Positions 1,093-56,216 of a DNA stretch of 64,000 nucleotides are shown one piece after another. The stretch comes from Yuukianura sp. NJ FZ-2021 (Eukaryota). The notes below the pieces were generated by a model. That model searched no databases, was not told where the DNA came from, and saw only the letters and a program-made list of their open reading frames with translations. The position numbers and the translations under genes were made by a program. The stretch covers positions 7,936,001 to 8,000,000 of the forward strand of contig CM102285.1 in assembly GCA_046563655.1 (NCBI GenBank), written 5' to 3'. The first letter of the stretch is position 1; each line of letters begins with the position of its first letter.

Positions 1093-2115
1093 ATGCCCCT
1101 AATACTAAGCAAGCTGTGCTGGACCTTCTCAATTTTAATAAAAAAACCTTCTACGGAACCAGAAATTTTGGACTCAGACGAAGACTCTGATGATGACGAT
1201 GATTGCTACTATTATGTGGTAACACCCCCTGCAAAAACACCATCAATACCACTAGAAACTGACAAAAACGACACCGTCACAATCTCAACACCAGCATCTC
1301 TTAAAATTGATTTGACGAACGAGGAAGCAGACAGACACGAGAACACCACAAACGAGACGATAATTACATTATCCGAAGACTTCAATACCATCACGACCGC
1401 AAACTGCAAAGTGGATGATGAAAATTATGTTGATAAAGCAACTTTTATTGACCACACCAGAAGTCTCGTATCAAATACGGAAACCCACCAACCTTACGAA
1501 ATGATACAGCAATTAACCACGTCGGAACCAGTTCATCTAGTACCACAACAATGGCTACATACACATGTGCAACCAGACAACTGTTGTAACGAGACGAACA
1601 CGACAATAATCTCTTTAATTGATTCAGATTGGAAATGGAAACACCTTCATCTTAACCTCTCCGTGCCCGAACTCAATATTTCATCCGTGATTCAACACCC
1701 CGCTATTCGACTACCAATAGAACAAACATCGTTCATCTCCCCATTGGCTCATTGGTCAGCATTCGGTGTTATCATGCAAGTCCTATTCTTTCTTAGGGCC
1801 ACATGGATTACCTACATCGTTCTCAAAACTGAGTTACGTAACTTCATCATGATGGGAACTATACCGAGTGTACGCGCCTTTGACGTACCAAACTTTGTTG
1901 TCAATCTGATGGACGACTTTCTTCTACTGCTGATCCTAATCACTCTCATCCTCATTCTGATATGCAATTGCAAACCCACACGGAACGCTCATTTGGACCT
2001 ACCACTGCGCTTCTCGAGGACTCAACGTACTGACGTACCTACAGAACCTACACCACGCCCACCAAGACCTGTTCCACCTCGAGCAGAATCCAGAGAAACC
2101 AGCATCTTCTACTAA
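1093..2115 (+). CDS. Unknown ORF (340 aa, acidic/Thr-rich, hydrophobic segments near C-terminus) downstream of the 386-558 LTR
   Basis: Long open frame with no recognisable domain. It may be the frameshifted continuation of 669-863. Confidence 0.35.
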   Translation: MPLILSKLCWTFSILIKKPSTEPEILDSDEDSDDDDDCYYYVVTPPAKTPSIPLETDKNDTVTISTPASLKIDLTNEEADRHENTTNETIITLSEDFNTITTANCKVDDENYVDKATFIDHTRSLVSNTETHQPYEMIQQLTTSEPVHLVPQQWLHTHVQPDNCCNETNTTIISLIDSDWKWKHLHLNLSVPELNISSVIQHPAIRLPIEQTSFISPLAHWSAFGVIMQVLFFLRATWITYIVLKTELRNFIMMGTIPSVRAFDVPNFVVNLMDDFLLLLILITLILILICNCKPTRNAHLDLPLRFSRTQRTDVPTEPTPRPPRPVPPRAESRETSIFY

Positions 2116-3020
2116 TCCCGACTTTCTCAGCATGATGACAAGTTGGCATAATCCAGACTCCACACTTCAGATGCACTTCACTCTTTCGTTTCTAAAGACA
2201 AAAACAACACCATTAGTAGTTGTACACCACTTCAATAGTCTACTTACATGATGTCATCACAGCAGACCTGTCTAAATTCCAAAACGAATTAGATTTATAT
2301 TCACCTATAACTAACACACAACGATTTTAATGGTAGAATCACCTTTTAAAATAATCAACAGATATCCCCTCACAGTTTCGCACAGACACAGGAACCACCT
2401 TGATATGCCTCCTTCCTTGTATAATCCACAGCAAACTTCAAGCACTGCCTGACTCAATTCCCTAAAATACACATCACCTTTTTAGAATATAATAGTATGA
2501 TTTATGATAATATAATAGTGATAACTAAACAATTATTTCACTTATCTGATACGACATTCACCATCTTCACGGTACCACCTACATCACACCAATAGAATAG
2601 AGCTTGCCACGGCACTGGACACGAATAGAAAATTTGAAGATGGAGAGCAAGAAGACGGCTCTACCGTCTCCTAGTCATCCCAATTATCATGCATGGTACT
2701 CACATAGTGTGAAACCATTCTATTAGCAGTGGAATGTAAGCGTTCAGAAAGACCATTTCCTCTAGAATTGTAAGGCGTGACAAAAATATGTTTTATGTTA
2801 TACATTTGACAATAGGTTTTTAAAATATTACTAATATATGGACCACCATTGTCACTTAGTAAAAATTTTATTGAACCCATTCTACAAAAAATCCGTTCAT
2901 GAAAAAACTGTGCTACTGTTTCGGCTGTTTGATCTGGAATCGCTTTAATTTCACACCATTTTGAAAAATGATCAATTGCATTAATAATGAAAACGTTTCC
3001 AGATTCACTTTTCGGAAAAG

Positions 3021-4335
3021 TTTTTTTTTTTTTTTTTTTTATTTATATGTTACTCTCCCTGCGGGCCCGAAGCCCATGGAGAGGGAGTTCGATTCGTTTG
3101 AAATGTAGCTAATAACAAATGTTTAACGTGTGGGGCTGTACAAACTGATAACAAATTTGGGAGAATGATTGATTACAGGAGTTAAGTCGAAAGTATTTAA
3201 ATTTAATAGAACTTATTTCCGTCTTCTTCGTTCTTTGAATTTTTCTTTCATTTCGTCAAGTTTCGCTTGTAGAAGGGATTTGTTGAGATGATCCAATGAT
3301 TCATGATTAACTTCTCCATAATGTTCAGCAACTGCTTTTTTGAAGGCGTCTCGGCCCTGAATTGCTGCTACTTTGAAGGAATGTAATTTGTTGAGTTCTG
3401 TATGACCTCCATTGTGTGCATGATGGTCGGGCTGCTTGTGAGTTGAGTTTGTGACTGGAATTTGCTGATGTTTGGTGGTGAGGGTGTTATGTTTCGTGGG
3501 AGCAGAGTTTGGAAGATGAGAATCTGCATGGGAAGCGAAAAACGTCTTCGATGACTTTCTTGCTTCTTGTGGAGATGTGGAGTTTTGCTGAATGGCGTCT
3601 TGTTGTAGAATTTCGGATGCTGGAGACTTTGAAGGAGCGACTGGGTTGGGGTCAAGGTTTTCATTGAGGATTTGTGGCTGGATAACCTGCTGCGGTTTGT
3701 CCACGAGAGAGGTGAGCTCTCCCTCTCCCGTTGGGTGAAACAATACCTCTTTCTCCACGTGCTTGGCTTCTGAGTGTTCATTCTGGGACTTACTTTTCGT
3801 TCTCTGATGAGGTGGTAAGTCATCGCTGATTCCGATTGCTGATCCCTTAAGCAAATGACATCGACTGAATAACTTTGCTTTTTCTGCATTTGACATTAGT
3901 GACACGGAAATTGTTCTCTTTTTCCCGAAGACACGGACGGAGTGAATTTGAATTTGGAGTTTTAAGTGTCCAAAAATCCATTCCGAAATGGTTGAAACAG
4001 AAACTCGCTCAATTTGTAATCCGTGGATGATCACAGTGGGATTGTCACAGGGTTTTTGTAATGTCACAATTTCCGAGAGCCGTTGCGCAAATTTGTCTTT
4101 TAACCGGTTCAGGTGCAATAGCTCCGAATTTGAAAACTGGTTGCTTTGGAGTAAGGACGTTAGTGAATTAAAGCAAAAATTCGCAATTTCCATTGTGCGA
4201 GACTGGACTGTATAAGTTAGGGATCGAATGGGAAAACAAGAGTCTAAATTCTAGTAAGGGTATAACTTCTAGTGACAAAAGGAAGAGAGCTTAGTGACAC
4301 ACGTCTTAACAGTTTCACGTCTCGAATCGAACTCC
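3021..4335 (-). mobile_element. PolyA-tailed non-LTR retroposon (~1.3 kb) with a single ORF, inserted in element A integrase
   Basis: T20 tract at 3021-3040 (polyA on minus). Target duplication TTTCGGAAAAGTT at 3010-3022 and 4336-4348. GC-rich stem-loop just before the tail. Confidence 0.9.
3213..4193 (-). CDS. LINE ORF1-like protein (CR1/L2-type RRM+CTD-like), 326 aa
   Basis: Motifs VIIHGL, IHSVRVFG and LLKGSAIGISDDL resemble non-LTR ORF1 proteins. The frame is intact and no RT ORF accompanies it. Confidence 0.65.
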   Translation of the reverse strand: MEIANFCFNSLTSLLQSNQFSNSELLHLNRLKDKFAQRLSEIVTLQKPCDNPTVIIHGLQIERVSVSTISEWIFGHLKLQIQIHSVRVFGKKRTISVSLMSNAEKAKLFSRCHLLKGSAIGISDDLPPHQRTKSKSQNEHSEAKHVEKEVLFHPTGEGELTSLVDKPQQVIQPQILNENLDPNPVAPSKSPASEILQQDAIQQNSTSPQEARKSSKTFFASHADSHLPNSAPTKHNTLTTKHQQIPVTNSTHKQPDHHAHNGGHTELNKLHSFKVAAIQGRDAFKKAVAEHYGEVNHESLDHLNKSLLQAKLDEMKEKFKERRRRK

Positions 4336-6730
4336 TTTCGGAAAAGTTCCACAGGTGTCTGTGGAAACAATTTCAAAAATAGTTTCAGGAACTGGAATTG
4401 GTTTTAAAAAGCCGTATCGTTTTTCGTGAGAAAGTTTATTAATTAGGCATGATTGGCATGCGTGAACAAAATTGGACAAATCTCCAGCCATAGTAGCCAA
4501 AAATAGCGCAAAGAAAGTTTATCAAAAGATCGCGAAAACCCTAAATGACCTGAGATAGTTGACTCATGAACCAACTGCATTAGTTCACGCCTGAGGATTT
4601 TAGGAACAACCGCTCTCAGATAACCAAACTTAGTATTATAGAGAATTTTATTTTTAATAATAAATTTGGAATTTACATTTCCTTGAGCCAATTTTTCAAT
4701 TATTTTGATGCAATCGTCATCAATTAATTGCAATTCCGGTAATTGGTCTTCTGAAATATGGAAAACAGGAAACTCTAATTCTTTTTCATCAAATGGATCA
4801 GGAAGAGGTAAACGAGATAAACAATCTGCTAATTTGTTAAAACAGCCTTTTCGATAAACAATTTTATAATCATATTGCTGTAGAATCAAAGCATATCTTG
4901 CTAAACGTGAAGAAGATTCATTTTTAGCAAAATTTAAACCTGAAATCGGCTCATGATCGGTATAAATAGTAAAAAATTTAGAGTCAATGTATGGATGAAA
5001 AACTTGTAAAGCGTGTAAAATAGCGAGATATTCCCGGTCCGTTGTGCTATATTTAACTTGTGTTTTGTTAAGAGTTCGGGAAGAGAAAGCAACGGGTCTC
5101 TCTTTTCCCTTTTCATCTGGTTGAAGTAAGGACGCTCCAATGCCAAACCCAGAACTATCAGTGACGATATTAATGGGTTTGTTTGGATCGTAATGTGCAA
5201 GAATAGGAGCATTAACTAAAGCATTTTTGAGAGAATTAAAAGATTTTTCCTGGGCATCTTCCCATATAAAGTTTTGATCTTTTCGGAGTAACATAGTCAA
5301 AGGCTTTGCCAAATCAGAGTATCTATAAATAAATCTTCGAAAGAAACAGACTGCCCCTAAAAATTGTTGAATTTCCTTAACATTTGTAGGTTTTTTAATT
5401 TCGGAAATGGCTCTAGTTTTTTCCGGATCTACTTCCACGCCATTTTTTGAAACTATAAAACCCAAAATTCGAATTTTGTCCTTCAAAAATTGACTTTTCT
5501 TCACACTAATTTTTAGTCCATACTTCCTAAATCTTTGAAACGCCAATTCTAAGTCCTCGACATGTTGTTCAATTGTGAGATTACTAAAAATTATATCGTC
5601 CAAATAGTTGATTAATCGAGTCCACAAATAATCCATTAATATAATCGCTAAACAGCGGGAATATGCCGCGGGAGCATTGTATAGTCCAAATGGTAATCTC
5701 ACAAATTCAAATAATCCTGACTGGCTTATTAATGCAGTAAGTGGAATGCTTTCTTCTGCCATGGAAATTGCCCAATAACCTTTCTCTCCAAAGTAGAAAT
5801 TTTATTTGCTCTGGATGCAATCCAGTCAAGAATAGATTGGATGTTAGGTAAGGGATATGCATCCTTCACCGTGACCTTGTTGACTGGTCGATAATCGATG
5901 CAAAATCTCGGTTCTGTTTTTACTCCATCTTTGTGACCTCTACGAACAATCACTACTCCACAACCCCATGGAGAGTGTGATGGACGTATAACACCTAATT
6001 CTAGTAAATCCTTTATTTTATTTCTTTCAAACTCTTCTAAATCAGGAGCTTTACGGTAAGGAGAGCGTTTCACCGGTGAGGAATTTTCTAACAACGTTAT
6101 TTTATGTTGATAACATGTGATATTACCAATTTCTCCTGGTTTGGCAAAAACATCTTGATACTTACGTCACAAGTTCTCTAAAAGTTCACGTTCATAAGAG
6201 GTAGCAGTGTTTGAAATTTGAGCAAAAAGGTTTTGAACATGAGTTTCATCATTCAAAACGTCTAATTTTTCGGTAACTTTACTGATTTCCTCAGTTAAAT
6301 TCATGACGTTTTCCTCAACTGGTAAATTTTCAAAACAAATAATATTTGCAATTTTTAATTCAGCAGGAATTAAAATCGCAGTTTTGGAAACATTAAGAAT
6401 TGGAAAATATAAGAATTCTGAGGAATAGTCACTCCTCAACAAAATAGGTGGCATATGAAGTCCCAACTGAACCATTTCATCGCTAATTTCAACGTAATTT
6501 AAATTACTAATTTGGCCAATTAACCTAACTTTAAGTAATTTACTTAACCTAGCTGGCATTACTATCTTTTTTACATTTTGTACAAATGGATCCATTTTTT
6601 TGTGTTTGATCTGCGGAACACGAGAGCTCTGGATATGACGCGTCACTTAACCTAGACTTAACTAAATGGCCATTACTATCATTTTCATTTGTTTTGATTT
6701 GATTATTTTCTTCTTGCGCAATTTGATTTA

Positions 6731-6876
6731 TTTTGAAAAAAAATTCTTGCTTTGGGCTGAAAAACCCCTTGGACTCACTGGTCCGCATCGCATTATTTCC
6801 TGCTTGATGTTTTGAAAAAAAATTCTAGTTTTGGGCTGAAAATCCCCTTGGACTCACTGGTCCGCATCGCATTATT
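6731..6876. repeat. ~79-bp tandem duplication in the PR-RT spacer of element A
   Basis: GGACTCACTGGTCCGCATCGCATTATT occurs at 6771 and 6850, and MRTSESKG is encoded twice. Confidence 0.8.
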
Positions 6877-7742
6877 CTCTTCTTGATTTGTATTGTGCTT
6901 TGAACTTTGTGTATTATTTACTTTCATTTTTTCAAAATTAATTAACTGACATACTAAAATTTTCTGATCAGAAAAGCGTCGCTTAATCTCATTCTTATTT
7001 AAATTATTTTCTAAAAAATCGTTGAGACGAATTGGTTCAATTGGAAGCTCATTCCCACGCCAAGTAATAAATTCTTTTGAAATGTGAAGTGAAATATCTT
7101 GAAACTTACAGAAGTCCAAACCTAATAATAAATCAAACATAAGAGTAGGAACCACATACGCATTAAAATAAATAGTCATATTACTAACTTTAATTTGTAA
7201 CCTACTCCAAGTTTTTACGGCAACTTTTGTTGATCCTATTCCAACCAGAGAAATTGAAAAACTTTCTGTTCCTCAACAAATTTAGGATGATCTAAAGAGA
7301 CTGAACTGCCAGTATCTAAAATTATCTGAGCCATTTTATTATTAACCAATCCATTTAATCTAATTAATCCACCGTTTGTGCCCAGAAGGAATGCATGTTC
7401 ATAATGCATTAATTCAGAGGAGGGGCCTGTGGGAGGACCGCCGGAGGCTGATAATACGTGGTTTGTCCATAAACCACTGGGTTGCTCTGCGAAGCGGACA
7501 CCTGGCCTACCACCACCTGATTGTTGAATCCCGGTCCAACTGGTTGAGCTGGGGCATACTGGTATTGGTTGTATCCCTGGTACGGAGTGTGGTACTGTGG
7601 CCGAGGTCCACGGTACCGCGGTTGCCATTGATTTGGAAAGTGTCGCGGTTGGCCATAACGCTGCCTGGGAGCAAAATTCTGCCGGGGCCGAGGGCCCCGG
7701 GGCATAGAGTTTTTTACTCTACATTCAAAAGTGGAATGAGTA

Positions 7743-7955
7743 TGTGGTGTATTTGGCAATTTAAATAAATGTACTTATTTATTTAATCAGACTTAATCCT
7801 AAACTAAGTGTGTGGTGAGCGGCACTCAAACATTGAGTGTCAAAACTATGTGATTTTTAGAGAGTGGTGGTGACTTAAAAGTAACCGCCACTCTGGACAC
7901 AAAACTTAACTTACGGGGAAGTTGAGACTGCGCTGAAAAGCGCAAATACATTACA
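7743..7955 (-). repeat. 3' LTR of the Mag-like element
   Basis: Direct repeat of 12575-12787, with the PPT adjacent at 7956-7970. Confidence 0.97.
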
Positions 7956-8235
7956 TTTCCTTCCCCTCTAGGAAAAGTCACTTTCCAAAACGTTTTAGGA
8001 ATGGAGAGAGAAGGAAAAGGACCTCAGCATCGTGGTACTTGGTGGGAGCCACTGCTTTGACGTGGAGGTGGACGAGGCCTCCAGCAGCACCAAGGTTTTG
8101 CAAAGACCATCCGCTGAGGGGGTCAAGAAGGCTAACGTAGAGGAAGGGAAGTGGCCTTTCTCTAAGAGGAGGATTACAATTAGAACTGGGTTCTTAATTT
8201 AATCTTGCAAGTATTTACACTAAACCGTTACAATT

Positions 8236-11172
8236 TTAGTTTTTCTTGCCTTTTGCGGCACGCGGAAGGACCGGACGACGTTGAGTCGGTGCAGGGGCTG
8301 GAGTTGCTTCCGGGGAGGTAATCGGACTTTGGTTAGGGGACGGCGTAGTGTAGTCGTCTTCATCCGGAGATTCGTATTCTGAAGATGGTTCGGAATCAGC
8401 ATTTGAGTACTCCGTAGCAAGATGCGGAGTCAGAATCGGAGCAAACGTGTATGGAGACGGGACTTTGGCTGGCGTTTTCGGAGTCAGACTAGACGGTGGA
8501 GTGGACTTAGGGGTTGGTGACGTCACTGGTTTTGCAGTTTCGGAGTTTAACGCCACTTCCTCCTCCTCCAAATTTTGAAACGAAAACGGAGACGTCCTTG
8601 CGTCAAGTAATTGGTCCTGGTGACGACGGTACCTACTATACTCAAACTGGACAACAACAGTTACAGGACCTTTGAATGCCACAATTTCACCTAATGACCA
8701 TTTTGGATAATCTTTTTTGAATGATTTAAACCAAACCCGTTGACCAATGTGAAATTCCCTGTGTCTCGCTCCTTTGTCGAAATTCGACTTCTGACGTTCC
8801 TGCTGAGACGAAACGGTCTGTTTGACGTCAGGACGGAGAAGATCGAAAAGTGAACGTAGACGACGACCTTGGAGTAACTCGCAGGGTGCGACTCCAGTTG
8901 TGACGTGTGGTGTAATCCTGTAGTGGAAAAGGAAATTTTGCACCAAATAATCCAAATCACCTTTGCTTTCGATCGACTTCTTGAAAGTATTGACGAAGTT
9001 CTCTGCTTCGCCATTGGACCGAGGATGGTAAACGGAGCTCGTCGTGTGTTTCACTCCGTTCGACTTCAAGAATTGTACAAATTCGGTTGAAGTGAACTGG
9101 CGTCCGTTGTCTGTGACCACCTGTCTTGGGATACCAAAACGGACAAAACACTCTCGAAATTTCGTAATTAGAGCCTGAGACGTGGAATTAGAGTTCAGAC
9201 AAAATACCTCTGGCCACTTACTATGTGCGTCCACGATCAGCAGCCACATTTTACCTTTGAATGGGCCTGCCAGATCTGCATGGAGACGATGCCAGGGTTT
9301 TTGGGGAAACTCCCAAGGATGAAGTTCGGCTGGTGGTGGATCCTTTGCTGACTCACGGCAGTGTGTACAGCGTTTCGTCACTTGCTCGATGTCAGAATCG
9401 AGTTTTGGCCACCAGAAAAATTCTCGGGCAAGAGATTTCATCTTCACGATTCCAGTGTGAGCAGAGTGTAACTCCTGGAGAAGATTCTCTCGTAGTTTTT
9501 CTGGGATGAGTACCCGAATACCCCATAGGACAACGTTACTGGCAATTGTCAACTCTTCCTTCCGTAGGAAGTATGGGTACACGGGGTCGGTCTTGTCTAC
9601 TTTGTCTGGCCAGCCGTCACGAATGTACCTAAAAACCTGCGATAAAATTTTATCCTTTTTAGCGTACCTCTGGATCTCAGTGGAAGTGATGGTGACGGAT
9701 TCGGTAGCAACTTTCACTGCGTTGACGAGACCTTCGTCGTCATCGTCAAAAGTCACGTCATGACCAGAAGTTGGGAAGCGTGAAAGGGCATCTGCATTCC
9801 CGTGTTCTGTCGTCTTCCTGTAGTGTACGTCGTATGAGAATTGTTGTAGAAACAGACTCCAGCGATGCACACGAATCGCAGCGAAGGACGGAAGTGCCTT
9901 ATTTTTGCCAAAAATGTGCACGAGAGGCTTGTGGTCGGTTACTAGGGTGAAGTGACGGCCTAAAAGATACTTATAAAGTTTCTTGCATCCAAATACAATT
10001 GACAAAGCCTCTTTTTCGATTTGAGAATATTTTTGCTCAGTTTTGGTAAGAATTTTAGACGCGTACGCAATTGGTTTTTCCTTACCATCTGCCATTCTGT
10101 GGAATAGGACAACCCCTAGACCAATACCTGAAGCGTCGCAGGATATCCCAAGGGGCAAATCCTGATTGTACAAAGTGAGAACTTCCGTGGATGACAGTTT
10201 CCGTTTGATTTGATTGAAAATCTTCGTGTGTTGATTGGTCCACTTCCAGTCTACGTCATCATGTGTCAATTTGTAAAGTGGAGCTGAAAATTCTGCGAAA
10301 TTGTCAACAAAACCACGGTAAAAGTTTACCAAACCCAGAAATGAACTCATTTCCTTTTTGTTGGTCGGCTGGGGCATCTCGAGAATCGACTCGACAAGTT
10401 TCGGAGATGCGCAAATTCCGTCTGAGGTCAACCTAAATCCAACAAAATCAACATTTTCCCGCATGAACTCACATTTTTCCCTCTTCAGAAAAAAGTTGCG
10501 GTCTCGCATCCGCGACAGGATGATGCGTAGGGTGTTGAGGTGGGTTGTCTCATCATGCCCCGTGCAGATGACGTCATCCATGTAAGCACCAGCTTTTGGA
10601 ATTCCAGTCAAGAGTCCATCCATGAACTCTTGGAAGATCGATGGAGATGACGAAATGCCTTGTGGAAGGACGTTGTACTGGTATAACCCCTTGTGAGTGT
10701 TGACTACCAAGTACTTTCTGCAACTTTCGTCTACTGGGATTTGGTGGAAGGCGTCAGGACCATCTAATTTGGTGAATTTCTGTCCACCAGAAAGTAAATT
10801 AAACAAATCCTCAGTACGAGCAATTGGATACTGGTTAATGTTCAGTTGGCAATTAACAGTGTTTTTAAAATCGCCTGTGATTCTGACTTTACCATTGGGC
10901 TTTAAAACGCAAACTAGAGGTGAGGCCCAGTCAGAATGTTCAACTTTTGTCAATACTCCTTGACTCACCATTAAATCCAATTGTTCATCCACCTTTGACT
11001 TGAGTGCGAACGGAATTGGACGAGCCTTGAGGAACCTCGGTTGAGCGTCCTCCTTGAGTACAATTTTTGCACGAAAGTCCGTGACTGACCCAGTTGGATT
11101 TTCAAAAACTGTAGAAAATTCAGTTAGTACACTTTCCAGGGTTAAATTTTTCATCATGTTACAATGAGACAA
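8236..11172 (-). CDS. pol: Mag-like RT-RNase H-integrase polyprotein
   Basis: Motifs YMDD, CDAS, LVTDHKPL, HHCC (LHSAHTG...CTHC), HADLAGP, TDNG, SNGEAE and the GPV C-terminal motif. Confidence 0.95.
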   Translation of the reverse strand: MSHCNMMKNLTLESVLTEFSTVFENPTGSVTDFRAKIVLKEDAQPRFLKARPIPFALKSKVDEQLDLMVSQGVLTKVEHSDWASPLVCVLKPNGKVRITGDFKNTVNCQLNINQYPIARTEDLFNLLSGGQKFTKLDGPDAFHQIPVDESCRKYLVVNTHKGLYQYNVLPQGISSSPSIFQEFMDGLLTGIPKAGAYMDDVICTGHDETTHLNTLRIILSRMRDRNFFLKREKCEFMRENVDFVGFRLTSDGICASPKLVESILEMPQPTNKKEMSSFLGLVNFYRGFVDNFAEFSAPLYKLTHDDVDWKWTNQHTKIFNQIKRKLSSTEVLTLYNQDLPLGISCDASGIGLGVVLFHRMADGKEKPIAYASKILTKTEQKYSQIEKEALSIVFGCKKLYKYLLGRHFTLVTDHKPLVHIFGKNKALPSFAAIRVHRWSLFLQQFSYDVHYRKTTEHGNADALSRFPTSGHDVTFDDDDEGLVNAVKVATESVTITSTEIQRYAKKDKILSQVFRYIRDGWPDKVDKTDPVYPYFLRKEELTIASNVVLWGIRVLIPEKLRENLLQELHSAHTGIVKMKSLAREFFWWPKLDSDIEQVTKRCTHCRESAKDPPPAELHPWEFPQKPWHRLHADLAGPFKGKMWLLIVDAHSKWPEVFCLNSNSTSQALITKFRECFVRFGIPRQVVTDNGRQFTSTEFVQFLKSNGVKHTTSSVYHPRSNGEAENFVNTFKKSIESKGDLDYLVQNFLFHYRITPHVTTGVAPCELLQGRRLRSLFDLLRPDVKQTVSSQQERQKSNFDKGARHREFHIGQRVWFKSFKKDYPKWSLGEIVAFKGPVTVVVQFEYSRYRRHQDQLLDARTSPFSFQNLEEEEVALNSETAKPVTSPTPKSTPPSSLTPKTPAKVPSPYTFAPILTPHLATEYSNADSEPSSEYESPDEDDYTTPSPNQSPITSPEATPAPAPTQRRPVLPRAAKGKKN

Positions 11173-11190
11173 ATTTTTGCCACTTTCAAC

Positions 11191-12387
11191 TCAATCCAGT
11201 TTTACCTTCTGCATAAGGTCACGACCAAGCAGAGAAGAACCAGTTGTGACTGGAAACTGGTGTGTCACATTTTGACCATTGTACGAGACTGTCGTAGGTA
11301 ACTCACCCTTTGGTCGAAATGTCACGTCCGGATATCCCTTGAAGACAAGAGTTGACTTTTTCAAAGTCGGAGAACCGAGACTGGCCCAAAAATCCTCCGA
11401 GAGCAGACTGTGCTCACAACCTGTGTCTAATTCAAAGGAATGTGGAACACCATTGACAATTAGACTTACGCACAGTTCCTTACGTTTACCATAGTGGACA
11501 TGATTGACAGACGAGATGTTTGAAACTTTCCCGTGTCCAGAATTGTCACGTTGGGCAGGGACTGACTTGCCCTTTGACCTGCAGAATTTTGCGTAGTGGC
11601 CCTTTTTCCCACACGAGTGACATTCTACGTCCTTCTTGTCACAGTCCTTGGCAGTCGAGTACTTACTGGAACCGCAATTTGGACAATTCTTCTTCTGGTT
11701 GTGGTTTTCCTGTTGGACATTATTAGGTTTCGCTTTTGACTTACTCTTCCATTGACCTTTACCACCCTTCCGTTGAAAAACAGCGTTTACGTTCTCCTCC
11801 TTCTGGTCTGATTTCCCATCACGAATCAGCTGTTGTGATTTAATCGCAAGTTCGTGCGATTGAGCGAGGGAGAGTACGTCGGCAAGGGAAATGTCATCCT
11901 CCTTTGTAAACAGTTGTTTCTGGGCAGCAGCATTGCCTAAACCTAGAATAAACTGGTCACGGAGGCGAGTGTCAAGGCAACATGTAAATTTGCATGTAGT
12001 TGCCAATTTTCGCAATTCGGCCAAAAATTCAGCAACCGACTCACCATGTTGCTGTACCCTTTTCCCGAATTTGAAGCGTTCGGAAATTACCTTAGGTGAC
12101 GGTTTGAAGTGCTTTGAGAGAGTATCGATGAGCACTTGTAGTGATTTTGACGTAGGATCCTCCGGTGAAAGGAGATCCTTGAGGAGCGTGTACGTACGCA
12201 TCCCTAGAGACGAGCAGAAGACGGCCTTACATCTCGTGTCCTGTTCCTTTTCGTCGATACCGTTAGACAGGAGGAAAAATTTGAATAAGTCCGTCCAGTC
12301 GTCAAAGTCATCTTTGTCATGATCAAAGGACGGAACGGAGCCGATGACGTTAACGAACTGAGTCGTTTTAGAAGAGCCAGAAGCCAT
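11191..12387 (-). CDS. gag: Mag-like Gag-protease
   Basis: Motifs ERFKF..R.Q..GES, LRDQFI.GL, CHSCGKKGHYAKFC knuckle, LDTG protease and LLGRD. It is in frame with pol, separated by one TGA. Confidence 0.93.
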   Translation of the reverse strand: MASGSSKTTQFVNVIGSVPSFDHDKDDFDDWTDLFKFFLLSNGIDEKEQDTRCKAVFCSSLGMRTYTLLKDLLSPEDPTSKSLQVLIDTLSKHFKPSPKVISERFKFGKRVQQHGESVAEFLAELRKLATTCKFTCCLDTRLRDQFILGLGNAAAQKQLFTKEDDISLADVLSLAQSHELAIKSQQLIRDGKSDQKEENVNAVFQRKGGKGQWKSKSKAKPNNVQQENHNQKKNCPNCGSSKYSTAKDCDKKDVECHSCGKKGHYAKFCRSKGKSVPAQRDNSGHGKVSNISSVNHVHYGKRKELCVSLIVNGVPHSFELDTGCEHSLLSEDFWASLGSPTLKKSTLVFKGYPDVTFRPKGELPTTVSYNGQNVTHQFPVTTGSSLLGRDLMQKVKLD

Positions 12388-12574
12388 GTTTAACTGTTCC
12401 TCAGATTTAATAAGTTAGCACTTACAAAGATTATGAGGTAAGATTTTGATTGGGGAGAGGTCAATTCAAGTGATTGCAATTACCGTACCCAAAAAAACCG
12501 TGATTACCGTGAATCTTCTGTGTAGCTGTGCCTTCTTCCGTTGACTGATTGATTGGTTAACTAGCCACGCCAAA

Positions 12575-12787
12575 TGTGGTGTATTTGGCAATTTAAATAA
12601 ATGTACTTATTTATTTAATCAGACTTAATCCTAAACTAAGTGTGTGGTGAGTGGCACTCAAACATTGAGTGTCAAAACTATGTGATTTTTAGAGAGTGGT
12701 GGTGACTTAAAAGTAACCGCCACTCTGGACACAAAACTTAACTTACGGGGAAGTTGAGACTGCGCTGAAAAGCGCAAATACATTACA
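12575..12787 (-). repeat. 5' LTR of the Mag-like element
   Basis: Direct repeat of 7743-7955, with the PBS adjacent. Confidence 0.97.
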
Positions 12788-13946
12788 GAGTATTAGTTTT
12801 ATAGTAGTCACAAAATTTGGAATCGCAATTTGCAGCAAAATGCGAATTGGAACCACAAGTGTAACAGGCATTATTTGGTCGCCGATCATTCGATCGGAAA
12901 TTCTGAGGTTTCTGAGATTTAGTCCCTCCTTTTGTGGGATTTTCAGTATGAATTTTAGACAAGTCTTTTTGAGTTTCAATTATATTATTAATCAAAACCG
13001 TTTGGTCCTCAAAAAGTTTTGTTAATTTCGAAATTTCGGGAGAAGATTGCTCAGTGCAGGAATTAACAGAAACGTTATGTTCTAACATATATTGAGTCTC
13101 TGCAATTTTCCGTCCAGTTGAAATAAGTTCATCCACTGTCTTTAAATTTAGGGGATTAATTTTCTCCAAATAATATGGAAGCAGAGACCGAGTGATTTTG
13201 CGAAGCTTAATTGCTTCAGACATTGAAGGGTCATAATCATTACATAGATCTAAATAGGCATACACAAAGTCTTCAAAGGATTCTCCAATCTGTTGCTTTC
13301 TGTCTGTTAACTTCTGTTCAGCGATTTCCTTATTCGCCACAGATTGGAAGGCCCTTTGGAGAGCTTCTGTTAGCTCCGCCCGTGTGATAGTGTCTTCTGG
13401 CTCAGATTCCTTAGAGGAGGCCTTATGTTTTTCTGTCCTATCCTTTCGCAGTTCAGGTACCAAAGGCTGGCACTTGCTGTCAAATAGTTAGGCAATTGCA
13501 TTACCTTAATTTCCGGGGTCCATGAATTGGCAATACTAACCAATTCAAATTGCTGCAACCATTTGTAAGAATCGTCTTTAGGATTGAATTTAGTTGGAAT
13601 AATGCCAACTTTGGTGGGTTTTAACGCCATTTTCTTAGTGGTGCTACTACTAGTAGTGGGAGGACTTTCCATAAATTGTTAAATTGAAAACTTAGAATGT
13701 GGTCTTGGATAATTTCTCCAGAAACCAGTTAACCCCCAGAAAAAAATTTTAGTGGCACGGAAATAAGAGAAAAAACGCTAAACCGAATCCAAAAATTAAA
13801 GTAACGAAAAATGCTAATTCAAAAATAGCACACGTATCCCAATAAAAATCCTCTTTGGAAAATTGTTTATTATTGTTTTCCATGTTGTGTTACTAACTTA
13901 TGAGAAAAAAAAACAAACCAAACAACAAAAAAAAACAGCAGTGGAT

Positions 13947-14414
13947 TCAGAACATGTAATGTCCTGTTCTCTCTTCCAAACGGAAATAATGAATTTGTCC
14001 TACGGAAGAAAAAATGTAGAATTTACTAGTAATTAGCTTACGTTCATCTTTTGAAAGAGAGTTGAAATAGTGAATTGACAGTTGAATTTCGGAAATCTGC
14101 GTTGTTTTTAAAAGTCGTGCTGTTGAACAAGTTAGAACTTTAGGAGTTAAATGAATCAAAAAATATTTCGTGTGAACTCTAGTCCAATGGACTGAATTTG
14201 AAGTCTCAAAACGATGAAAATATAAAGCGGAACTAAGAACTTCAGAATGTTTCAGAAAATGCTTTTGAATTGTGACGCAATTGTTTTGAACTGCTAGTTT
14301 AAGAAACTGATACTTAACACCTCTTGAAATTAATGCTTCATTCCAATTTAAAAAATCTTCATAATTTAAAAATTCAAAGATTTTTTCCAATGAAAATTTG
14401 TCTAATTTGTGCAT
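13947..14414 (-). CDS. Element A accessory ORF 3, F-box-like N-terminus, 155 aa
   Basis: MHKLDKFSLEKIFEFLNYEDFLN resembles the F-box consensus. The C-terminal FNSLSKDERKLITSKF motif is shared with the neighbouring ORFs. Confidence 0.6.
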   Translation of the reverse strand: MHKLDKFSLEKIFEFLNYEDFLNWNEALISRGVKYQFLKLAVQNNCVTIQKHFLKHSEVLSSALYFHRFETSNSVHWTRVHTKYFLIHLTPKVLTCSTARLLKTTQISEIQLSIHYFNSLSKDERKLITSKFYIFSSVGQIHYFRLEERTGHYMF

Positions 14415-14441
14415 TTAAAAGAAATCATTTACCAGAAGGAG

Positions 14442-14905
14442 TTAAAATATCTCTTCAAGAGAGTAAATTGCTTTAAATTCGTATCCGTTTGGAAACTTTT
14501 CGCCTTCGATGAATGAAATTCGAAATTTATTTAGTAAGGAACCTTTCTCCTCGTCCGACAGTCTTTCAAAATTTTCCCTGTAAATTTCAACTGAAGTTAA
14601 AGTGGTAAAATTACATAACTCTGGAATTGAACGTTTTAATCACTAGGAAATCGTTTAAAAAACTCTTCGGATTGAATTAATGTGCAACCAAGACTAGTGG
14701 CTGTTCTCCTGGAAACATAAAAAAGAGTTGGTTCGATTTGGCTTAAAATGTTCGAAAGACGTAGTTGAGCAGTTTCAAAAATTTGATTGAATCGCCTTGA
14801 GAAGGAATCAGAAAACTGTTCAAAACTAATTTTCAAATTTTCCAAATCGTGAAAGTTTAAATAAGAAGGAATTTCTTGCAATGCGTAAAAATTAAGAGTT
14901 TCCAT
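14442..14905 (-). pseudogene. Element A accessory ORF 2, F-box-like N-terminus, one frameshift near 14640
   Basis: Starts METLNFYALQEIPSYLNFHDLENL. An alternative frame continues ...FERLSDEEKGSLLNKFRISFIEGEKFPNGYEFKAIYSLEEIF* to 14442. Confidence 0.6.
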
Positions 14906-14941
14906 TTATTTGATCATTCATAAAGTTATATTTAGGAAACT

Positions 14942-15406
14942 TTATTTAAGGCGTAATTCATACCCAGGTGGTACTAACGTGGAATCAAAGTGACCGCGAA
15001 GATGAAATTTTTGACACAACAAGGAAAGTTCATGTGGCGTTAAATTATGAACAAAAGCTACTGTAGTATTGGCTGCAATAATATTCGATTTTAAGAATAA
15101 TTGTAGGGTGGATTCGAAAGCAAGGTACGCCGGTTGATTGTCTAGAAACTCGGTTTTCTTAAGGAACCTACAATTAGGAGTACGTGAAGTGTCTATTTGA
15201 ATACTGAGTAACAAATCCACATCTAAAATATTATCAAAATGGTGAACAAGTTTGGTATTTAACTGGTGTAAAAAAATTTGAGTCTCATGTAAAAAATTTG
15301 AATATAAAGAAGGTTGTATGTTAACAGCTAATTGCAAATTTAAAATATCCTCAAAACTTAAATTGATCAAAATGTTACGAAGTGGAATTGAAGTGAATCT
15401 GTGCAT
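14942..15406 (-). CDS. Element A accessory ORF 1, F-box-like N-terminus, 154 aa
   Basis: Starts MHRFTSIPLRNILINLSFEDILNL. The C-terminal HNLTPHELSLLCQKF...PPGYEL parallels ORF 2. Confidence 0.6.
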   Translation of the reverse strand: MHRFTSIPLRNILINLSFEDILNLQLAVNIQPSLYSNFLHETQIFLHQLNTKLVHHFDNILDVDLLLSIQIDTSRTPNCRFLKKTEFLDNQPAYLAFESTLQLFLKSNIIAANTTVAFVHNLTPHELSLLCQKFHLRGHFDSTLVPPGYELRLK

Positions 15407-15897
15407 TTAGAGCGACAACTGCTTGAAGAAATCGAGTGACTTGAAAAAATTAGCAAAGACTTGCTGAAAATATAAATATAGAGAAATCAAAAGAAGATAA
15501 GAATAATTAAAGATGAAATGGATGAACACATTACCTTAGTGTTGTTTTGAAAAAACGCAAAAGAGTGTTGAAAGTTAGTTTTGTTTTTTGGAAAAAATCG
15601 TTTGTCACGTTCCTTCTGTGAGTGAGCTTTTTACGCTTTATTTTCACCTAAAAAAATACCCTTATTTTTTATTGCTTGTTTGAGCCATATAAAAAAATAA
15701 AGGTTAAGAAAAAATTTTGAAAAAAGTTAGAGTTCTCCGACGAAAACCATTTTTTTTCTTTGTTAAAAAAAAACCCGTTATGTTGAAAAAAATTTATTAT
15801 TTTCGTTTGAACTTTGTTTTTATTTTAGTGTTAGTTTAAAAAAAACACTCCGATTTCCTCATATAGAAGAAATGGGAGAATCAGCTCGTCCACCAAA

Positions 15898-16233
15898 TGT
15901 TACGTGGCCCTTTCACGTAATAAATGGTGAACATTCGTAAAAAAGATAAGTTGAGAGTAGAATCTTTATTCAGAAAACTTAATGCTAAGGGAAGGGAAAA
16001 AAGTTGGGGTTTCATGGATCGTTAAGGGAAAACCACACGCGAGCCAGAAACTAAGGGGCTGCAGAGTGTAAGTTGAAGTTCAAGCCAAGCTCCGAACCAC
16101 AACTGAAGTGTCCAGTGCTGGACCAACGCTTTTTACGGGCCAGTGCGGCCGGAAAGGAAAGTCAACTTGACGCTATCCTGACCTACCCTAAGACTGAAAA
16201 GGCACTTGGCAACTAGGGGTCAGTTACGTAAGA
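15898..16233 (-). repeat. 5' LTR of element A
   Basis: TGTTACGT...ACGTAAGA near-inverted ends, AATAAA on the minus strand near 15965, and a PBS (TGGTGGACGAG) immediately inside. Confidence 0.7.
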
Positions 16234-19200
16234 TAAGAAAAAAAAGGAAAAAGGGACAACTAAAAAGAGGTGGAATTGAGAATCTAACTTTGGGGACATC
16301 TTGACCCACCTTGTCTTCAAGGGTCCAGTTTCATTCCGGATTCCCTTTGAGTAAGATCTTAAGTAACTACAGTGAAAGTGTTCTAAGCATAACACTGATG
16401 GTCCATCAGTCGACTCCTCCACAATTCTAGTTGTTGGCGTTAAAGCGTTAGCTTTCCGCGACATTATCTTCCAAGACAATTCAATTTCAAAAAAAATATA
16501 ATATTGGCAGTGGTTAACTTTCTCAAGTCCTCTGGAATTGTCAACTTTTCAAACACAACAAAAACTTCCAATTGTCTTCGCTCATAGTATCAACTTCGAC
16601 TCGCGCTCACAAAATCTATTATCGCCATTTCCGTCGCAGTATCAAGTTGCTGAAATGACACCATCTTTAAGTTATCAGCATCCTGTCAGCAACACCTAAC
16701 CTTAGCTAGGGGTTTTCTCTTATTTTTTTACTGCTTCAAGCTAATACAAGCACATGTTGCTGATATGAAGGTATGTATTAGTGCTCGCCAAAAAATATGT
16801 TAAATTCTAATTTTGAAACTGGATTTTTTATCATGTCTTAATTTTAAAAAATGTTTGTGTCAGTGTCAAAGGTCAAGCGAAACACAAGCTTGGAGTAGCT
16901 TTGCTTTAGCATTAATTATTCATTTCCGGAGTTCTGTGACCCCATTGCTTACAGGGCTAATTAGTCATTTCCTAATCAACACTTTTTTAACTTTCAACAA
17001 TATTTGCAAATTTTTTTTAGCGAAAAAAAGTTTTTTAACAAATTTGTTACTATGTATGCTCAAAAATGTGTCAATTAGTCTAATTAACAATTTCTGGTTC
17101 TCACCTGTTCAATTTGATACTCGTGTAATCATTCTCTGCAAAATTTAAAAACAGAAAACTTTCCCGCCAAATTTGAAAAAAAAAATTTTTTGTAAAGAAA
17201 CCACACCCGAAAAAACGTTTTAGAAAAATGACGTCCTTTCCCCCTTTTGTTTTTGGTTAAATGTTGGAGCAATGTTCTTTGTATACATATGGACAATAAT
17301 TCTCCTAATAAGTGGACGATAGCTGAATCCGAAAAGGTCAAAAATGTTACTGCATTGGTTTGGCATACCAGGTGTAGGAACCGGAATCTGCCGGTTGCGA
17401 TCTTTTCTGTTCATCCGAGTCACAACACCACAGATTTATATTGACATGTCCAAACCGTCCGCATCGTGAGCACACAGTAGTTCGTTCTCCAACGACGATG
17501 GTATCATGTGAAGTTGTGGTTTAATATTTGGCGAAAATTTAGCAACAAACGTGACACAGGAACACGAGCAACTGGTTCCATAGACAACGGCGTCAACCTT
17601 GGATCACATCAACGCGTTGATCTTCCTGGCTAGAATAAGATATTATCTCAACTATTATCATTTTAACAAGCAAAGTAACAGATATACTTACGGATATATT
17701 GGTAACTATACGTACGAACAAGAGGGCTGTTAATCCATGTACTTAGTGTAAACATGTACCTAGTGTAACTGAGATTGGACCCATAGAAAAAAAGCTGATT
17801 TCCCCGACTATGTATTTGGCAAGGTTAGTATACTATTGGCAGGGCTATGCTATGAGGGATGACATCCCCCCCGTGCATTCGTCCGCCCATTTTTTAGTAA
17901 ACAGCTAACAAAGACCGTTCAGCGTATCCAGCTTCCTTTGGATGCTGCGATGGAATCTACAGTACCAAACACTTTAAGTAGCTCATCACGGATTTCGGTA
18001 TTTTGTGGTGGGTTAGCCCTCATCTGTCCCAAATGATTCACCAGCCAATCTTCGGCTGCCTTTTCTAAGCTGGAAGGAATAAGCCCCATGTCGTCGGAGG
18101 TAGCCTATTCGCCATCGCTGCGAGCTCCCATTTGACTAAGAAGCGATGTACACACTCGGATTTCGTACCTCCGAATTTCGGAATCGGAAAAGGGACCGAG
18201 ACTCGCTGAGGTAATGGTGGAGTAGGAAAATTCACGACTTTCGATTTTGTTCCTGAGCTGAATCAAGTGAAGTGGTAAGATTTTCCAAAGAGGGTTTTGC
18301 CTGGGGCGCCTGCACGAGGGGGGGGGGGGGTAAGGGTGGGGGTGCTGGTATTATGGACGGCATTACAGGGAACTCTGGAAACGAGAAATTGGATCGGCCA
18401 TGGGAAGGGACAAGTTAGGGAACACAGGAAGCCAGCCTACTATGCACCTACTATGTGGACTAAGCTACATTCGGATATTTTTGTAGACAGCAAGCATATA
18501 AATGTCTATTTTTGATAGTGAAATATTTTCTCACCGTGAAACCGAATGGATTGTGTTTCCCAAGTAAAATCGGAGAAGGCTGTTTTCCCGCTGAAGTGTT
18601 GATAACGTGCGAAACACACTGATTTCCTACTGTCGTCCCGTAGAAATCAAAAGGTTCCGGAATTGTGGCTGTCGATGGTGGTATTGTTAGTGGTGTTACC
18701 GAGAGTGAGGACCAAAGTGATGTAGTTGCCTCAAATCTCAAAATCCAAGTCCGGGTCCCTTGCCCAGGGTGTGGTTTTTGTAACATTTTTCTCCTACTCA
18801 GTTTCGCAAAAGAAACGTAGGTCAGCACGCGCTCACCTCACATTTCCATGGCGTGATCCGACTATCGAGAAGTGCGTTGAGTTTGACGCAGCATGGATGC
18901 TGTAGATCTATACTGGACGATCCCTAGGTGTGGTTCAGTGAACTCTTAATACTTTCCCCGTCTTTGCCTTTTCACTACAAGAGGACATTCATCTCCCCGT
19001 CCTATACTAACTGTAGAACAGAATCTAGTTGCTAAAAAAAATCTTTGCCAAAGTCTGCATGTCAGATTTGAGTGGAGAAACAAACTTTTGAAGCTCTGCC
19101 TTTCCTGGCAAAGTACATGGGGGGAGACTCCATCCTATTGGTTAGTCTCCGCCCGTTCCGGTGCAGGTATATGCTCTTTTTAGTGAAAAGCTTGTGTGAA

Positions 19201-19864: not shown

Positions 19865-20491
19865 TATATGGTCCTATTCGAACCGGATCCTACTATTTTT
19901 TTCAGAAAGGAAGGGAAGTTCGAGTCATCATATACCTAGCGACATGGTGTTTATTACTTTCTTTTCGTTTGCACCGCAGGGGTAAGATAAATATTGCGTT
20001 TTAAACAGTTATTGGCACATAGGCGACATTCGGGTTTGGTTAAGTAGATATTGTCGCAGAAACAACGAAAACACTTACTAACATGATGTTCACGGCTGTG
20101 CTCAAATGAGGAAAACAGCATGAGGCAATGGCGACAATATAAACATACGGTAGTCTTATGTTTTTCAAATTCTTCGATGTTTTTCATATTACTGCCACAA
20201 CTGTTACAGTGGTTACAGCCGGCAAAGCGTTGCTTCTTCTCCTTATCGGTGGTTAAATGCTTCTTCTTCTCAGACAACTAAGATCAATAGTTAGGGGTTT
20301 TCAATCCTAGGTTGCGTTAAAGAGGAAATAGAGGCATCTTACCGTGAAACCATGCTGAGAACACATAGGAGCTGCAGGCTAGGGCGTGAACATCGGAAGC
20401 GCTGACACAAAAAGCACGCTCACAGCCACACCGTTGGTCCACTCGTTCTGTTGGGTCGTGAGAAATTACATGATCTTCGAATTCGGCGGCG

Positions 20492-23400
20492 CACATTGGT
20501 TTATGGTATAGGACTGGAGACGCCAAAACTCAGAACCTCGTAATAATGTTTAAATATGGTTAAATATTGATGTTAAGCGTATTTTGACATAGCTTACACC
20601 TTGACGCGACCTTTAACCTTTCACTAACATGTATGATATTCAAAGCTTTACGAAATGGGTAGGCATGTCTTATGTCGTTCGAAAAATTATATACAGGAGA
20701 GTTTACTAGTTCGTATTTTACACCTCGTCACTATTGACATTCGGCCTCGTGGCCTTGTGACAATACGCAAATTTAAATTCAAGAAATTTTTTAGTAAATT
20801 GGTAAATTTATGAAATTGAAAAATTAAGAAAATTTAAAAAACTACGAACGACAATTCACATCCCGTCCTCCCCATCAGAAATCTCCAGATCGTCCAAATA
20901 AAGTATGGTTTCCGGTAGCCCAGTACAATCCTCCTGTTCATCATCTTCCAGTTCGTCCAACACAACTTCAAACGGAGCCGACAGCAACTTTTTAACCTCT
21001 TCCGGAAGGGGTGCGTGTTTCTGCTTTCGAATCCTTTTATCCAAACTGAATGAAGAAATAATTGGATCGGATGAATCTAACACTCGATTGAAAACGTCCA
21101 TCAAGTTCGCAGTTCTACTTTGTCTTCTGGCATGGGATATGCGAAACTTCTTGTAGACTTTATTCTGTCCCTCAGATGCTTCTTCCCCCATCATTCCTAG
21201 CGAAAGTAAGCTATTGATGATGATTTCCTTTCCGTGAATCAGAATCTAGAAGCAAAGCATAAAGTTGTGTTAGTAAAATCACTTTAAACTTTACATCTGC
21301 GAGTTGTATACCTTGTGGACAGAAGAGGGCATTGGGTACCATGAATAATTGTCGACATACTTCTGAGCAGTATTTTTACAGAACGCTCCAAATGAGATTG
21401 GATCAATCGGCAACTGGCAAGACAGAGCAATCAAAATCGTACGGAAGGCAAATACAAGATCGGGATTCAATCCTAAAATTAGTTAGGATAAGTTGCGATA
21501 ATAAGAACAAATTTCGGTCATTTATTTTTATGTGTTATCGATTACCAGTGATTTCAGCGAATTTCCTTGAATCCTTAAACACACGCCGAGCCGTGTTGCC
21601 ATCGTTTGTTGATCCAGCTCCTCCTGGTTTAGGACGGTCAACCTTAGTTCCGAGCTGGGTCCAAAGTTCCTTTTGAATTTGAGCTTTTCGTGCTCCAAGT
21701 GATCCCTTCGGAGCATGCCACTTTTTCAAGTGTAGTCGGTATGAGATTTTCAGGAGACATTCCATAAGTCTTATCCAGGCGTGAAGGGGACTGATTCCAT
21801 ATTTGAGGGTTCCCGGCGCCGGATCAAATATTTCACTGTCAATGTTGCTCAAATCGTTGAATTGCTTCGGGGTGGCTTTACATATTGGACAATTTTGCAT
21901 GGAGGAAGTGTTTGTCAGAATGCTTAACACCTTCCCATCAATTAGTGTCATGGAAAGTGAAAAGTTGACAAGGACCTTTGTTCTCCCCAGAAATACTTCA
22001 AATGTCTTTAACGCTGATATTTTTCCATCCATTGTTGCCTTTTCTTTGAGAATGTGGTCCTTTGACTCCTTTACAAATTCAATTTTGATGGGTCTGCAGT
22101 ACCGCACGGATTGGGGTGTTTGGTTACTCCAAAGAATTGATCCATCTTCACCCACTAATCGCAAGGGAATCATAGTTGTAGCAAACAGGCTTTCGTCAGA
22201 AACACTTTCGGATTCAAATCTTTGTTTGAACTGGGACTGCCCGCTACTACCATCGAATCCCCATGAACAAATTAGTGTTGCGGCGCAGGTTTTTTGACGT
22301 CTTGCCTCTACGTGCTGAGTAATAACTTCCTCTTGAAGTGTGCAAATCCTTTTTGCTGTGTGGCTCATTAGAGCCTGAAGATCCGACTCAGCTAAATGCT
22401 CTGACACATTTAGTTTACTTGGAGGAGGTCTGCATTCCGATTTCGCAGCAAGAACTTGGTGATAAGGGGGATAAATGTCTGCCTTCTTCCTAATAGCCCC
22501 TGACCTTAGAGCAGTGTATTGCTCTTTTGATAGTGAGAGGTCCAGTATCAAAGCCAACGCTTCCTCCACTGAATAGCGTGACACACCTTCCGTTGGACCG
22601 AACAACCTCTTCCTGATTTTAGTGGGGCGACTTGGGCTGCGGTTGGCTTCACTTAGAACCGATGCTAGGTCTCGTTTTCCTGACGCATAGGCTGAGTGCC
22701 CCGCTGCAGCAACAAGTAAGGTTGTCCCAGTTCCTTGGTCTGATAGCTCTTCACTCAATCTTTTCGCATCTCTTTGCTTAGACCTGACACTTTTTTCGTC
22801 AAAAGGTATCGGCGGACGGCCCCCACTGACGTTTCTGTGACGCTCAGGGACATTGACAAGCGGGTGCTCGACCTATCGAATAAAAACCTTACATAAAGAC
22901 ACCGCGTAGTCTGGGAAATAATATTTAGTAAAATTACTCGCCTTGAATTCTAGATTTAGCCATTCTCCATTTTTAGCCTGGAACCTCTGCCTGTTGTAAG
23001 AGGACGCCTTAAACCGCACAGTGAAGTTGCCATGTAAGCTTCTAATTCTTGAAAACAATGCGTAACTTTTGTCTTGGCTGATGTACGTCTTGTCAATGTG
23101 TAGTTCGTTAAACAACCAGTCCAATGCAGCTTTTGAATCCTCGGTTTTCTTTCCAGTTTCAAATTGAGAGCAAATGTCACCATTCGTAAACGTCATGCCC
23201 GTTGCCATTGTAACCTAAAGTTGTGAATAATCATAATTCATAACGTGTCTAACGTGTAAAACTTATACTTGAAAATACTCAGACTTAAACTTAAAACTTA
23301 AATCTGAAAGCAACGGACGAAAAAGAATATTGACTTAAGTTAATTACATTTGAAATTACCTTTTTTCAAGATGAGTTTGATCTTCGGTTTCGATTGTTGT

Positions 23401-23854
23401 GGGAATTCACGTGTGACACTTGAAAACACAATTTAACATGTAAAAACAACTTTTAACTCCACACGAAGTGAGAAAAGTAAGTTTGATTTGACCTTTGTCT
23501 TTTTCGAATTTTTTTTGAGATAGTCAACTTTCAATAGCTATAGGGAGTACAATTGTTGACAGTCGGTGGCAGTCGGATGGGCTTTTGAACATCATGTCCT
23601 ATAGAATGGTTTGGTATTGTGATCTTTCATGAAAGTCTTAAATCTTTACAAACATTCCTTATGATAGAAAGTTACTATACCCGTAATGTAATTTTCAAAG
23701 TTCCCCGTCCCCTCCTGAACCCAAACATTTATGAATCATCTTGCCCTTTTCCACAAAAATGCCTTCGCATATGACCATTGTCTTAGGCATAAAACGAAAC
23801 TAAAACAGGAACATTAGTTTTGGCGTCGCAACCCCTATAACATAAACCAATGTG
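20492..23854 (-). mobile_element. Complete Transib DNA transposon, 3363 bp
   Basis: Imperfect 39-bp TIRs beginning CACATTGGTTTATG, GC-rich 5-bp TSD CGGCG (20487-20491 and 23855-23859), and a RAG1-core-like transposase. Confidence 0.96.
20856..23208 (-). CDS. Transib (RAG1-like) transposase, 4 exons
   Basis: GRP..F..KS.RSK motif, WGFDGSSG (D), IDGK (D), CPIC, SPLHAWIR, GSTNDGNTARR, WYPMPSSVHK/ILIHG and EEASE (E). Introns at about 22873-22941, 21476-21546 and 21247-21311. Confidence 0.92.
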
Positions 23855-38980: not shown

Positions 38981-38997
38981 AATATTTCTTAACTAAA

Positions 38998-40647: not shown

Positions 40648-40743
40648 GTTGTCACTGCAAAGACGAAAAAACATGAAATTAGTAAAACCCAATCCACACA
40701 TTATAATAAGGACTACTGAAGCTTATTCGTTAATGCCTTAAAC

Positions 40744-56212: not shown

Positions 56213-56216
56213 GATA

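Follow-up and report, generated by a model that had tools for sequence, protein, structure and literature searches.

Three tandem open reading frames (ORFs) lie ahead of gag in a Gypsy element of Yuukianura sp., and they raise the question of whether a retrotransposon carries genes that give it access to a host ubiquitin ligase. Counter-defense by invertebrate retroelements is largely open, and few accessory genes have been characterized. We analyzed a 64,000-nucleotide stretch of DNA (the window; G000:C3:7936001-8000000) within a 98.7-Mb genome. The original prediction, drawn from the letters of the window, described the ORFs as an amplified family of F-box-like proteins that may target host silencing proteins for ubiquitination.

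A cassette of three related ORFs precedes gag

The host element is a degenerate Gypsy element of ~22 kb, insertions included, that lies on the minus strand and carries an env of the gB/chuvirus type; the Ty3/gypsy class of its POL is based on domain order and Pfam. Its 5′ LTR (TG...CA; 15898..16394, minus strand) is identical at 480 of 513 positions (94%) to the 3′ LTR found left of the window (G000:C3:7930089-7930600), and a PBS-like site starting with TGG lies 2 nt beyond the 5′ LTR (15882..15895, minus strand). In the sense of the element, the next features are ORF A (14942..15406; 154 amino acids [aa]), ORF B (14442..14905), ORF C (13947..14414; 155 aa), a 44-codon hydrophobic ORF overlooked by the original prediction and expected to encode a single-pass membrane protein (13749..13883), and the 5′ part of gag (12788..13630), all on the minus strand. 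The three larger ORFs were correctly placed between the PBS-like site (15895-15882) and the gag ATG (13630), and the cassette has the same sense as gag and pol. In all, 23 ATGs and four ORFs precede gag.

The gag gene is frameshifted and interrupted by a nested, younger Gypsy element that is unrelated to its host (7742..12787, minus strand; LTRs 99.5% identical, 5-bp TSD). The remainder of gag and a fragmented pol follow (2674..7741, minus strand), with protease, RT, RNase H, and integrase in the order PR-RT-RH-IN, interrupted by further insertions. Left of the window come the integrase tail, a fragmented env that scores above the Pfam cut-off for PF24664 (Monjiviricetes fusion), a post-env ORF, and the 3′ LTR; no clean TSD was seen at the ends of the element. 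Because gag is frameshifted, insertions are nested, and ORF B is broken, we regard this copy as dead. Two insertions occupy the integrase region: one (window 345-2715) is flanked by 41-bp direct repeats and has a 356-aa plus-strand ORF with hydrophobic stretches, and the other (window 3213-4250) carries a 345-aa ORF. Neither ORF had a Pfam match at the cut-off.

As predicted, the cassette consists of three homologous sense ORFs of ~155 codons, of which A and C are open and B has a single frameshift, near 14640. The break in B is bridged without gaps by contigs from two DNA runs (X1 record 4 and X2 record 9) and therefore is not an assembly slip, with the qualification that both runs derive from a single sample and could be the data from which the assembly was built. 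When the bases of the region were shuffled, one ATG-initiated ORF of ≥150 aa appeared in 2 of 2000 shuffles and two such ORFs in none. The mutual homology of the ORFs held up as well: global alignment scores were reached by at most 2 of 2000 shuffles (A-C, 1; A-B, 2; B-C, 0), with the three paralogues diverged to 20 to 30% identity and A and C only about 20% identical.

The N-terminal pattern L/F-x4-L-x2-I-x3-L-x3-D-x2-N is present in all three window ORFs, and the N-terminal 28 residues are the best-conserved stretch of the cassette family. The C-terminal motif L[ST]xxExxL[LI]xxKF, said to be common to the three, is exact in two of them, while B is one residue off. A PxGYE motif had also been noted; it is found in window ORFs A and B but in none of the three open orthologues on C5 described below, and we rejected it as a family motif.

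Cassette relatives accompany related elements

A DNA search of the genome found the cassette once; relatives emerged by protein search. There are 39 gag matches in the genome, and the 5 with ≥76% identity represent four elements, all of which carry cassette relatives upstream of gag. Within this set of close gag relatives, to which the systematic count applies, the claim of an amplified accessory family kept in other copies is borne out in 4/4 elements.

In the C5 element (C5:2113094-2134389; LTRs 98.3% identical, pol interrupted by a nested insertion), all three ORFs are open, are ordered as in the window, and show 31 to 36% identity to their window counterparts. Window ORFs A and C are orthologues of C5 ORFs A (31%) and C (36%), and both parts of window ORF B align to C5 ORF B. 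Between the two elements, gag, integrase, and env are 71 to 83% identical. In the C3b element (C3:5186304-5205978), B and C are broken and A is not detectable; at C1:797-801 kb, A, B, and C are all broken, and C1:4.75 Mb holds a fragment. The small membrane ORF is also present in the C5 and C3b elements. The post-env ORF, basic and then serine/acidic rich (L002:5106-6297 and L027:4199-5470), is conserved in three elements, with 27% identity between the window and C5 and a dN/dS of 0.27 (C5 versus C3b); no family match to it was found. About 0.5 kb outside the C3b 5′ LTR is an inhibitor-of-apoptosis-like ORF with BIR plus RING (L028:6521-7222; G000:C3:5206521-5207222).

A profile search of 1.84 billion proteins returned three hits, of which P0003 (E = 8e-4) is the single true outside homologue; P0001 and P0002 were dropped as repeat-protein artifacts. 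With P0003 as the query, window ORF B was recovered genome-wide (E = 2.2e-4). In a word-index protein search, query A1 gave 0/1107 candidates, and query P0003 found only itself among 59. P0003 lies on a metagenome contig (L096) that carries, in order, two tandem cassette relatives, a small hydrophobic ORF similar to the membrane ORF of the window, and a gag that shares 49% identity with that of C5. Since this contig starts 200 bases before its first ORF, a third cassette ORF is possible there. A scan of viral contigs with C5 gag as the query found nothing.

The cassette ORFs are under purifying selection

We estimated dN/dS by NG86 with 95% bootstrap intervals. Pairs of B and C gave values of 0.28 (0.15 to 0.51), 0.25 (0.14 to 0.43), and 0.36 (0.21 to 0.63); one B pair gave 0.56 with an interval of 0.29 to 1.09. 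The corresponding value for gag was 0.10, and comparisons with L096 were saturated and uninformative. The values of about 0.25 to 0.36 between closer copies, with intervals below 1, indicate that these are real accessory genes, and constraint in other family copies was what the original prediction had put at stake. The cassette ORFs form a family of accessory genes that is under selection and specific to one lineage of env-carrying Gypsy elements.

In the protein tree, window A groups with C5 A (support 93/94) and window C with the C5 and C3b C ORFs (88/95). This grouping places the triplication before the split of the two families. The two L096 ORFs group together (100/98), and window B has no resolved placement; judging by these sequences, duplication probably occurred more than once in the history of the cassette. 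Between C5 and C3b, dS is 0.42 to 0.52 in the cassette and the post-env ORF versus 0.05 to 0.11 in gag, integrase, and env. The accessory flanks exceed the core 4- to 10-fold in synonymous divergence, which suggests module exchange by recombination between flanks and core.

The N terminus resembles half of an F-box

The F-box reading of the original prediction stood in part. The N terminus resembles F-box helices 1 and 2 above chance, with residues ~4 to 24 of the cassette proteins aligning to them, but the Pfam cut-off, the LP proline, and the V[CS]xxW motif were all missed. The expected match to a Pfam F-box HMM failed: the best score was 14.3 bits against a cut-off of 20.5, and window ORFs A, B, and C had no F-box hit. 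The best cassette relatives reached 13 to 14 bits over positions 3 to 26 of the Pfam profiles (PF00646/PF12937), and an F-box entry appeared for just one of the 11 alignment members (E = 0.099) and, in the fragment scan, for 3 of 11 queries (E of 0.04 to 0.06).

In the host genome itself, F-box matches number at least 150, a count from the 150 candidates scored out of 165. There are four Skp1 genes, which contain introns and whose C-terminal exon is 93 to 97% identical to animal Skp1, pointing to an animal host. We built a host F-box profile from 43 of 60 returned host loci after removal of duplicates, one row (L123) being read on the wrong strand. Many of its rows carry intron sequence where the LP part would be expected; the profile therefore tests helices 1 and 2 and helix 3 but hardly the proline. 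Cassette profile A4 matched it with a probability of 74.8% and a score of 28.2 over 20 columns. The controls scored lower: no more than 14.3 in 200 column shuffles, 10.4 on reversal of the profile, and 10.2 once the first 30 columns had been removed. The match spans only about 20 of 43 columns and corresponds to an amphipathic helix pair.

With the host F-box HMM (null2 correction off), 7 of 11 cassette ORFs or fragments scored above all 300 shuffles, and the N-terminal register was identical in 11/11 sequences. Window ORF A and L096 ORF1 were weak, their scores being reached by 20 and 28 of 300 shuffles, respectively. The cassette ORFs took the top four places among 251 background ORF chunks, and in the reverse search host F-box frames came first among 5271 peptides, weakly (E of 0.08 to 0.6). 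Nematode F-box clusters appeared in the ESM Atlas at 0.90 to 0.91; this likeness is weak, with a recognition score of 2084, below the reliability bar, and 105 to 116 of 256 features shared.

Position by position, L1, I9, L13, and the helix 2 acidic residue followed by a hydrophobic one are kept in 8/8 cassette sequences. The proline at position 2 is found in none of the eight and an acidic residue at position 4 in two; V[CS]xxW entering helix 3, common in the host F-box rows, is likewise absent from all eight. By sequence, then, the cassette proteins resemble half an F-box and fall outside the family by the Pfam cut-off.

Predicted structure

AlphaFold2 models, built on alignments of 11 to 12 sequences, were obtained for C5 ORF B (pLDDT 89.7, pTM 0.81) and window ORF C (pLDDT 88.1, pTM 0.79). 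Both begin with two short helices and a long one, after which come a hairpin, short helices, and another three strands; a fold of three N-terminal helices plus a small alpha/beta part is thus confidently predicted. In Foldseek searches, neither the C5 ORF B model (against the PDB and viral sets) nor the window ORF C model (against the viral set) had a match at E ≤ 0.001. The best VIA-align matches (Z of 6.7 with an rmsd of 1.8 over 49 aligned residues and Z of 6.3 with an rmsd of 2.4 over 52) were generic helical bundles covering residues 1 to 52; among the best 50 rows per model no F-box motif was recognizable, and the C-terminal part was barely covered. Two candidates were rejected: 9o4k_D, as structural support for an F-box, because the chain is Skp1 (ASK1) and not the F-box chain, and ThsA, the best PDB sequence match (E = 0.11).

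Possible roles of the cassette proteins

The reading that we put forward, tentatively, is that the cassette products are truncated, proline-less F-box adaptors of SCF. Helices 1 and 2 are the predicted docking site for host Skp1, and the alpha/beta part that follows them would capture a host protein for delivery to the SCF ubiquitin ligase; Skp1 binding, Cul1 engagement, and substrate capture are steps that we infer. The deep divergence of the paralogues, with both parts kept, would fit different substrates or different host Skp1 paralogues. That the targets are silencing proteins, as originally proposed, is speculation. It is quite improbable that the full scenario holds, in which the lineage encodes an expanded family of SCF adaptors, each joining a proline-less half F-box to a new fold for substrate binding, and uses them to degrade host proteins that act against transposons. 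Adaptors of this kind would be an invertebrate counterpart of lentiviral Vif/Vpx.

A serious alternative, itself short of an even chance, is that the F-box likeness is convergent or vestigial and that the amphipathic helix pair belongs to a new small fold acting independently of Skp1, in RNA export, transcription, or direct binding antagonism of a host factor, like MDG1 sORF1. The three missing F-box signature features, the unreached Pfam cut-off, and the confident single-chain models (pLDDT 88 to 90) fit such a regulator, for which small regulatory ORFs upstream of gag offer a precedent in the available part of a preprint (bioRxiv 10.1101/2025.03.14.642691). Against it stands a similarity that starts at the start codon in the right register, is reciprocal, withstands the shuffle, reversal, and real-ORF controls, and falls in the stretch that the family conserves best.

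Rather unlikely is a role as a Skp1 competitor, in which complexes poor in Cul1 would displace F-box proteins of the host or stabilize the cassette proteins themselves. A pure decoy would need neither a conserved C-terminal part of ~100 residues nor three deeply diverged paralogues, yet the pattern of loss is suggestive: the hydrophobic positions are kept, and the missing proline (0/8) and acidic residue (position 4 in 2/8) are the F-box contacts to Cul1 described in the cited sections of PMC3237615. According to the same sections, loss of the proline lowers Cul1 binding for Skp2 and Fbxo4 but not for beta-TrCP, which binds Cul1 without the proline contact, through Skp1 alone, a point against the competitor reading. 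The host F-box matches and Skp1 genes counted above would give a competitor ample partners, and polerovirus P0 uses Skp1 binding mainly for its own stability (PMC6593998, in the part consulted).

That the frames have no function, being mere open frames in a long leader or host DNA that was captured and is now decaying there, is highly improbable and largely refuted by the selection data: the broken window B in a dead element, the absence of A from C3b, the fragmentary C1 copies, and the unexplained translation of gag behind so many ATGs would suit it, but for most close pairs dN/dS is below 1 with an interval that excludes 1, the frames have remained open although identity is down to 30 to 36% and synonymous sites are saturated, and the same layout recurs in another organism's element.

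With the adaptor reading as with its rivals, the cassette is a selected, fast-diverging, and apparently repeatedly duplicated set of genes that has no database homologue outside its lineage and has Skp1 as a candidate partner. If the Skp1 link is true, a retrotransposon would be hijacking a ubiquitin ligase, which offers a route to host restriction factors; otherwise, the cassette would represent a new small fold.

Comparison with known systems

The HSV/gB-type errantiviruses (Chary and Hayashi, eLife 2026, PMC13524379) have the same LTR-gag-pol(PR-RT-RH-IN)-env layout and a class III env, whereas the element studied here additionally carries four ORFs ahead of gag and one behind env. The terms "F-box," "accessory," and "upstream of gag" are absent from the main text of that paper; its supplements, like those of the MDG1 preprint below, could list such ORFs.

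MDG1-group retrotransposons of Drosophila likewise have one or more soluble small ORFs, a small membrane ORF, and gag in this order, with low dN/dS, but lack the env that the host element carries (bioRxiv 10.1101/2025.03.14.642691, here and below from the part available). MDG1 sORF1 is single and ~110 aa long and is described there with no mention of F-boxes, in contrast to three ORFs of ~155 aa here. MDG1 sORF2 has 63 to 107 aa and a polybasic tail (≥3 K/R within 15 residues after the helix); the membrane ORFs of the present elements fall short of this sORF2/FAST-like pattern, having 44 to 47 aa and a helix followed by 0, 0, and 2 basic residues.

In poxviral ANK/PRANC proteins, too, only helices 1 and 2 are recognizable, the proteins are multicopy in a mobile genome, and F-boxes of two helices bind Skp1 and SCF (PMC4353913, cited sections). 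There the F-box is C-terminal, behind ankyrin repeats, and its Skp1 binding is proven, whereas the cassette match is N-terminal and proline-less and its binding is predicted; Pfam scans found no ankyrin in the cassette ORFs. Polerovirus P0 is likewise a small 5′-proximal viral ORF with an F-box-like motif but needs LPxx(L/I) (PMC6593998, cited sections), and LP at the motif start occurs in 0/8 cassette ORFs.

A literature search, with most subscription papers outside its scope, returned no account of F-box accessory ORFs or of a Skp1 link in LTR retrotransposons and nothing on transposon-encoded F-box silencing suppressors in gypsy or on F-box capture between Polintons and retrotransposons.

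Other elements in and near the window

A Polinton/Maverick-like element (G000:C3:7456818-7473764) has 97% identical terminal inverted repeats and an integrase, its other genes being named by eye. Its 257-aa ORF (L070:5169-5939) has an LP-type F-box-like start (PF00646, 15.6 bits, below the cut-off) and 14 further genome matches (E < 0.001); a scan of viral contigs with this ORF as the query found nothing. The ORF and the cassette proteins align colinearly over the stretch between the F-box start and the KF motif, but the pairwise likeness is not significant, the profile probability is 0.3%, and shuffles attained the score in 3 of 100 cases (in 1 of 100 when the C-terminal part was compared). 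We treat possible homology between the two as a lead only. Were the full scenario of expanded SCF adaptors true, this subsignificant likeness would mark one adaptor family common to retroelements and DNA elements.

Within the window, a transposase-like ORF of 445 aa (21535-22872, minus strand), which by eye we take to be Transib/RAG-like, lies between inverted repeats (20487-20530 and 23816-23859) and had no Pfam match at the cut-off. A young Gypsy element (38997-56492, minus strand) has 277-bp LTRs that are 99.6% identical and open gag and pol. Four tandem ORFs follow its pol (865, 385, 442, and 367 aa); the first matches PF24664, and two of the other three were matched by an env query. Similar post-pol clusters occur at C5:3.62 Mb, C3:5.72 Mb, C10:0.93 Mb, C4:10.11 Mb, and C3:8.14-8.19 Mb.
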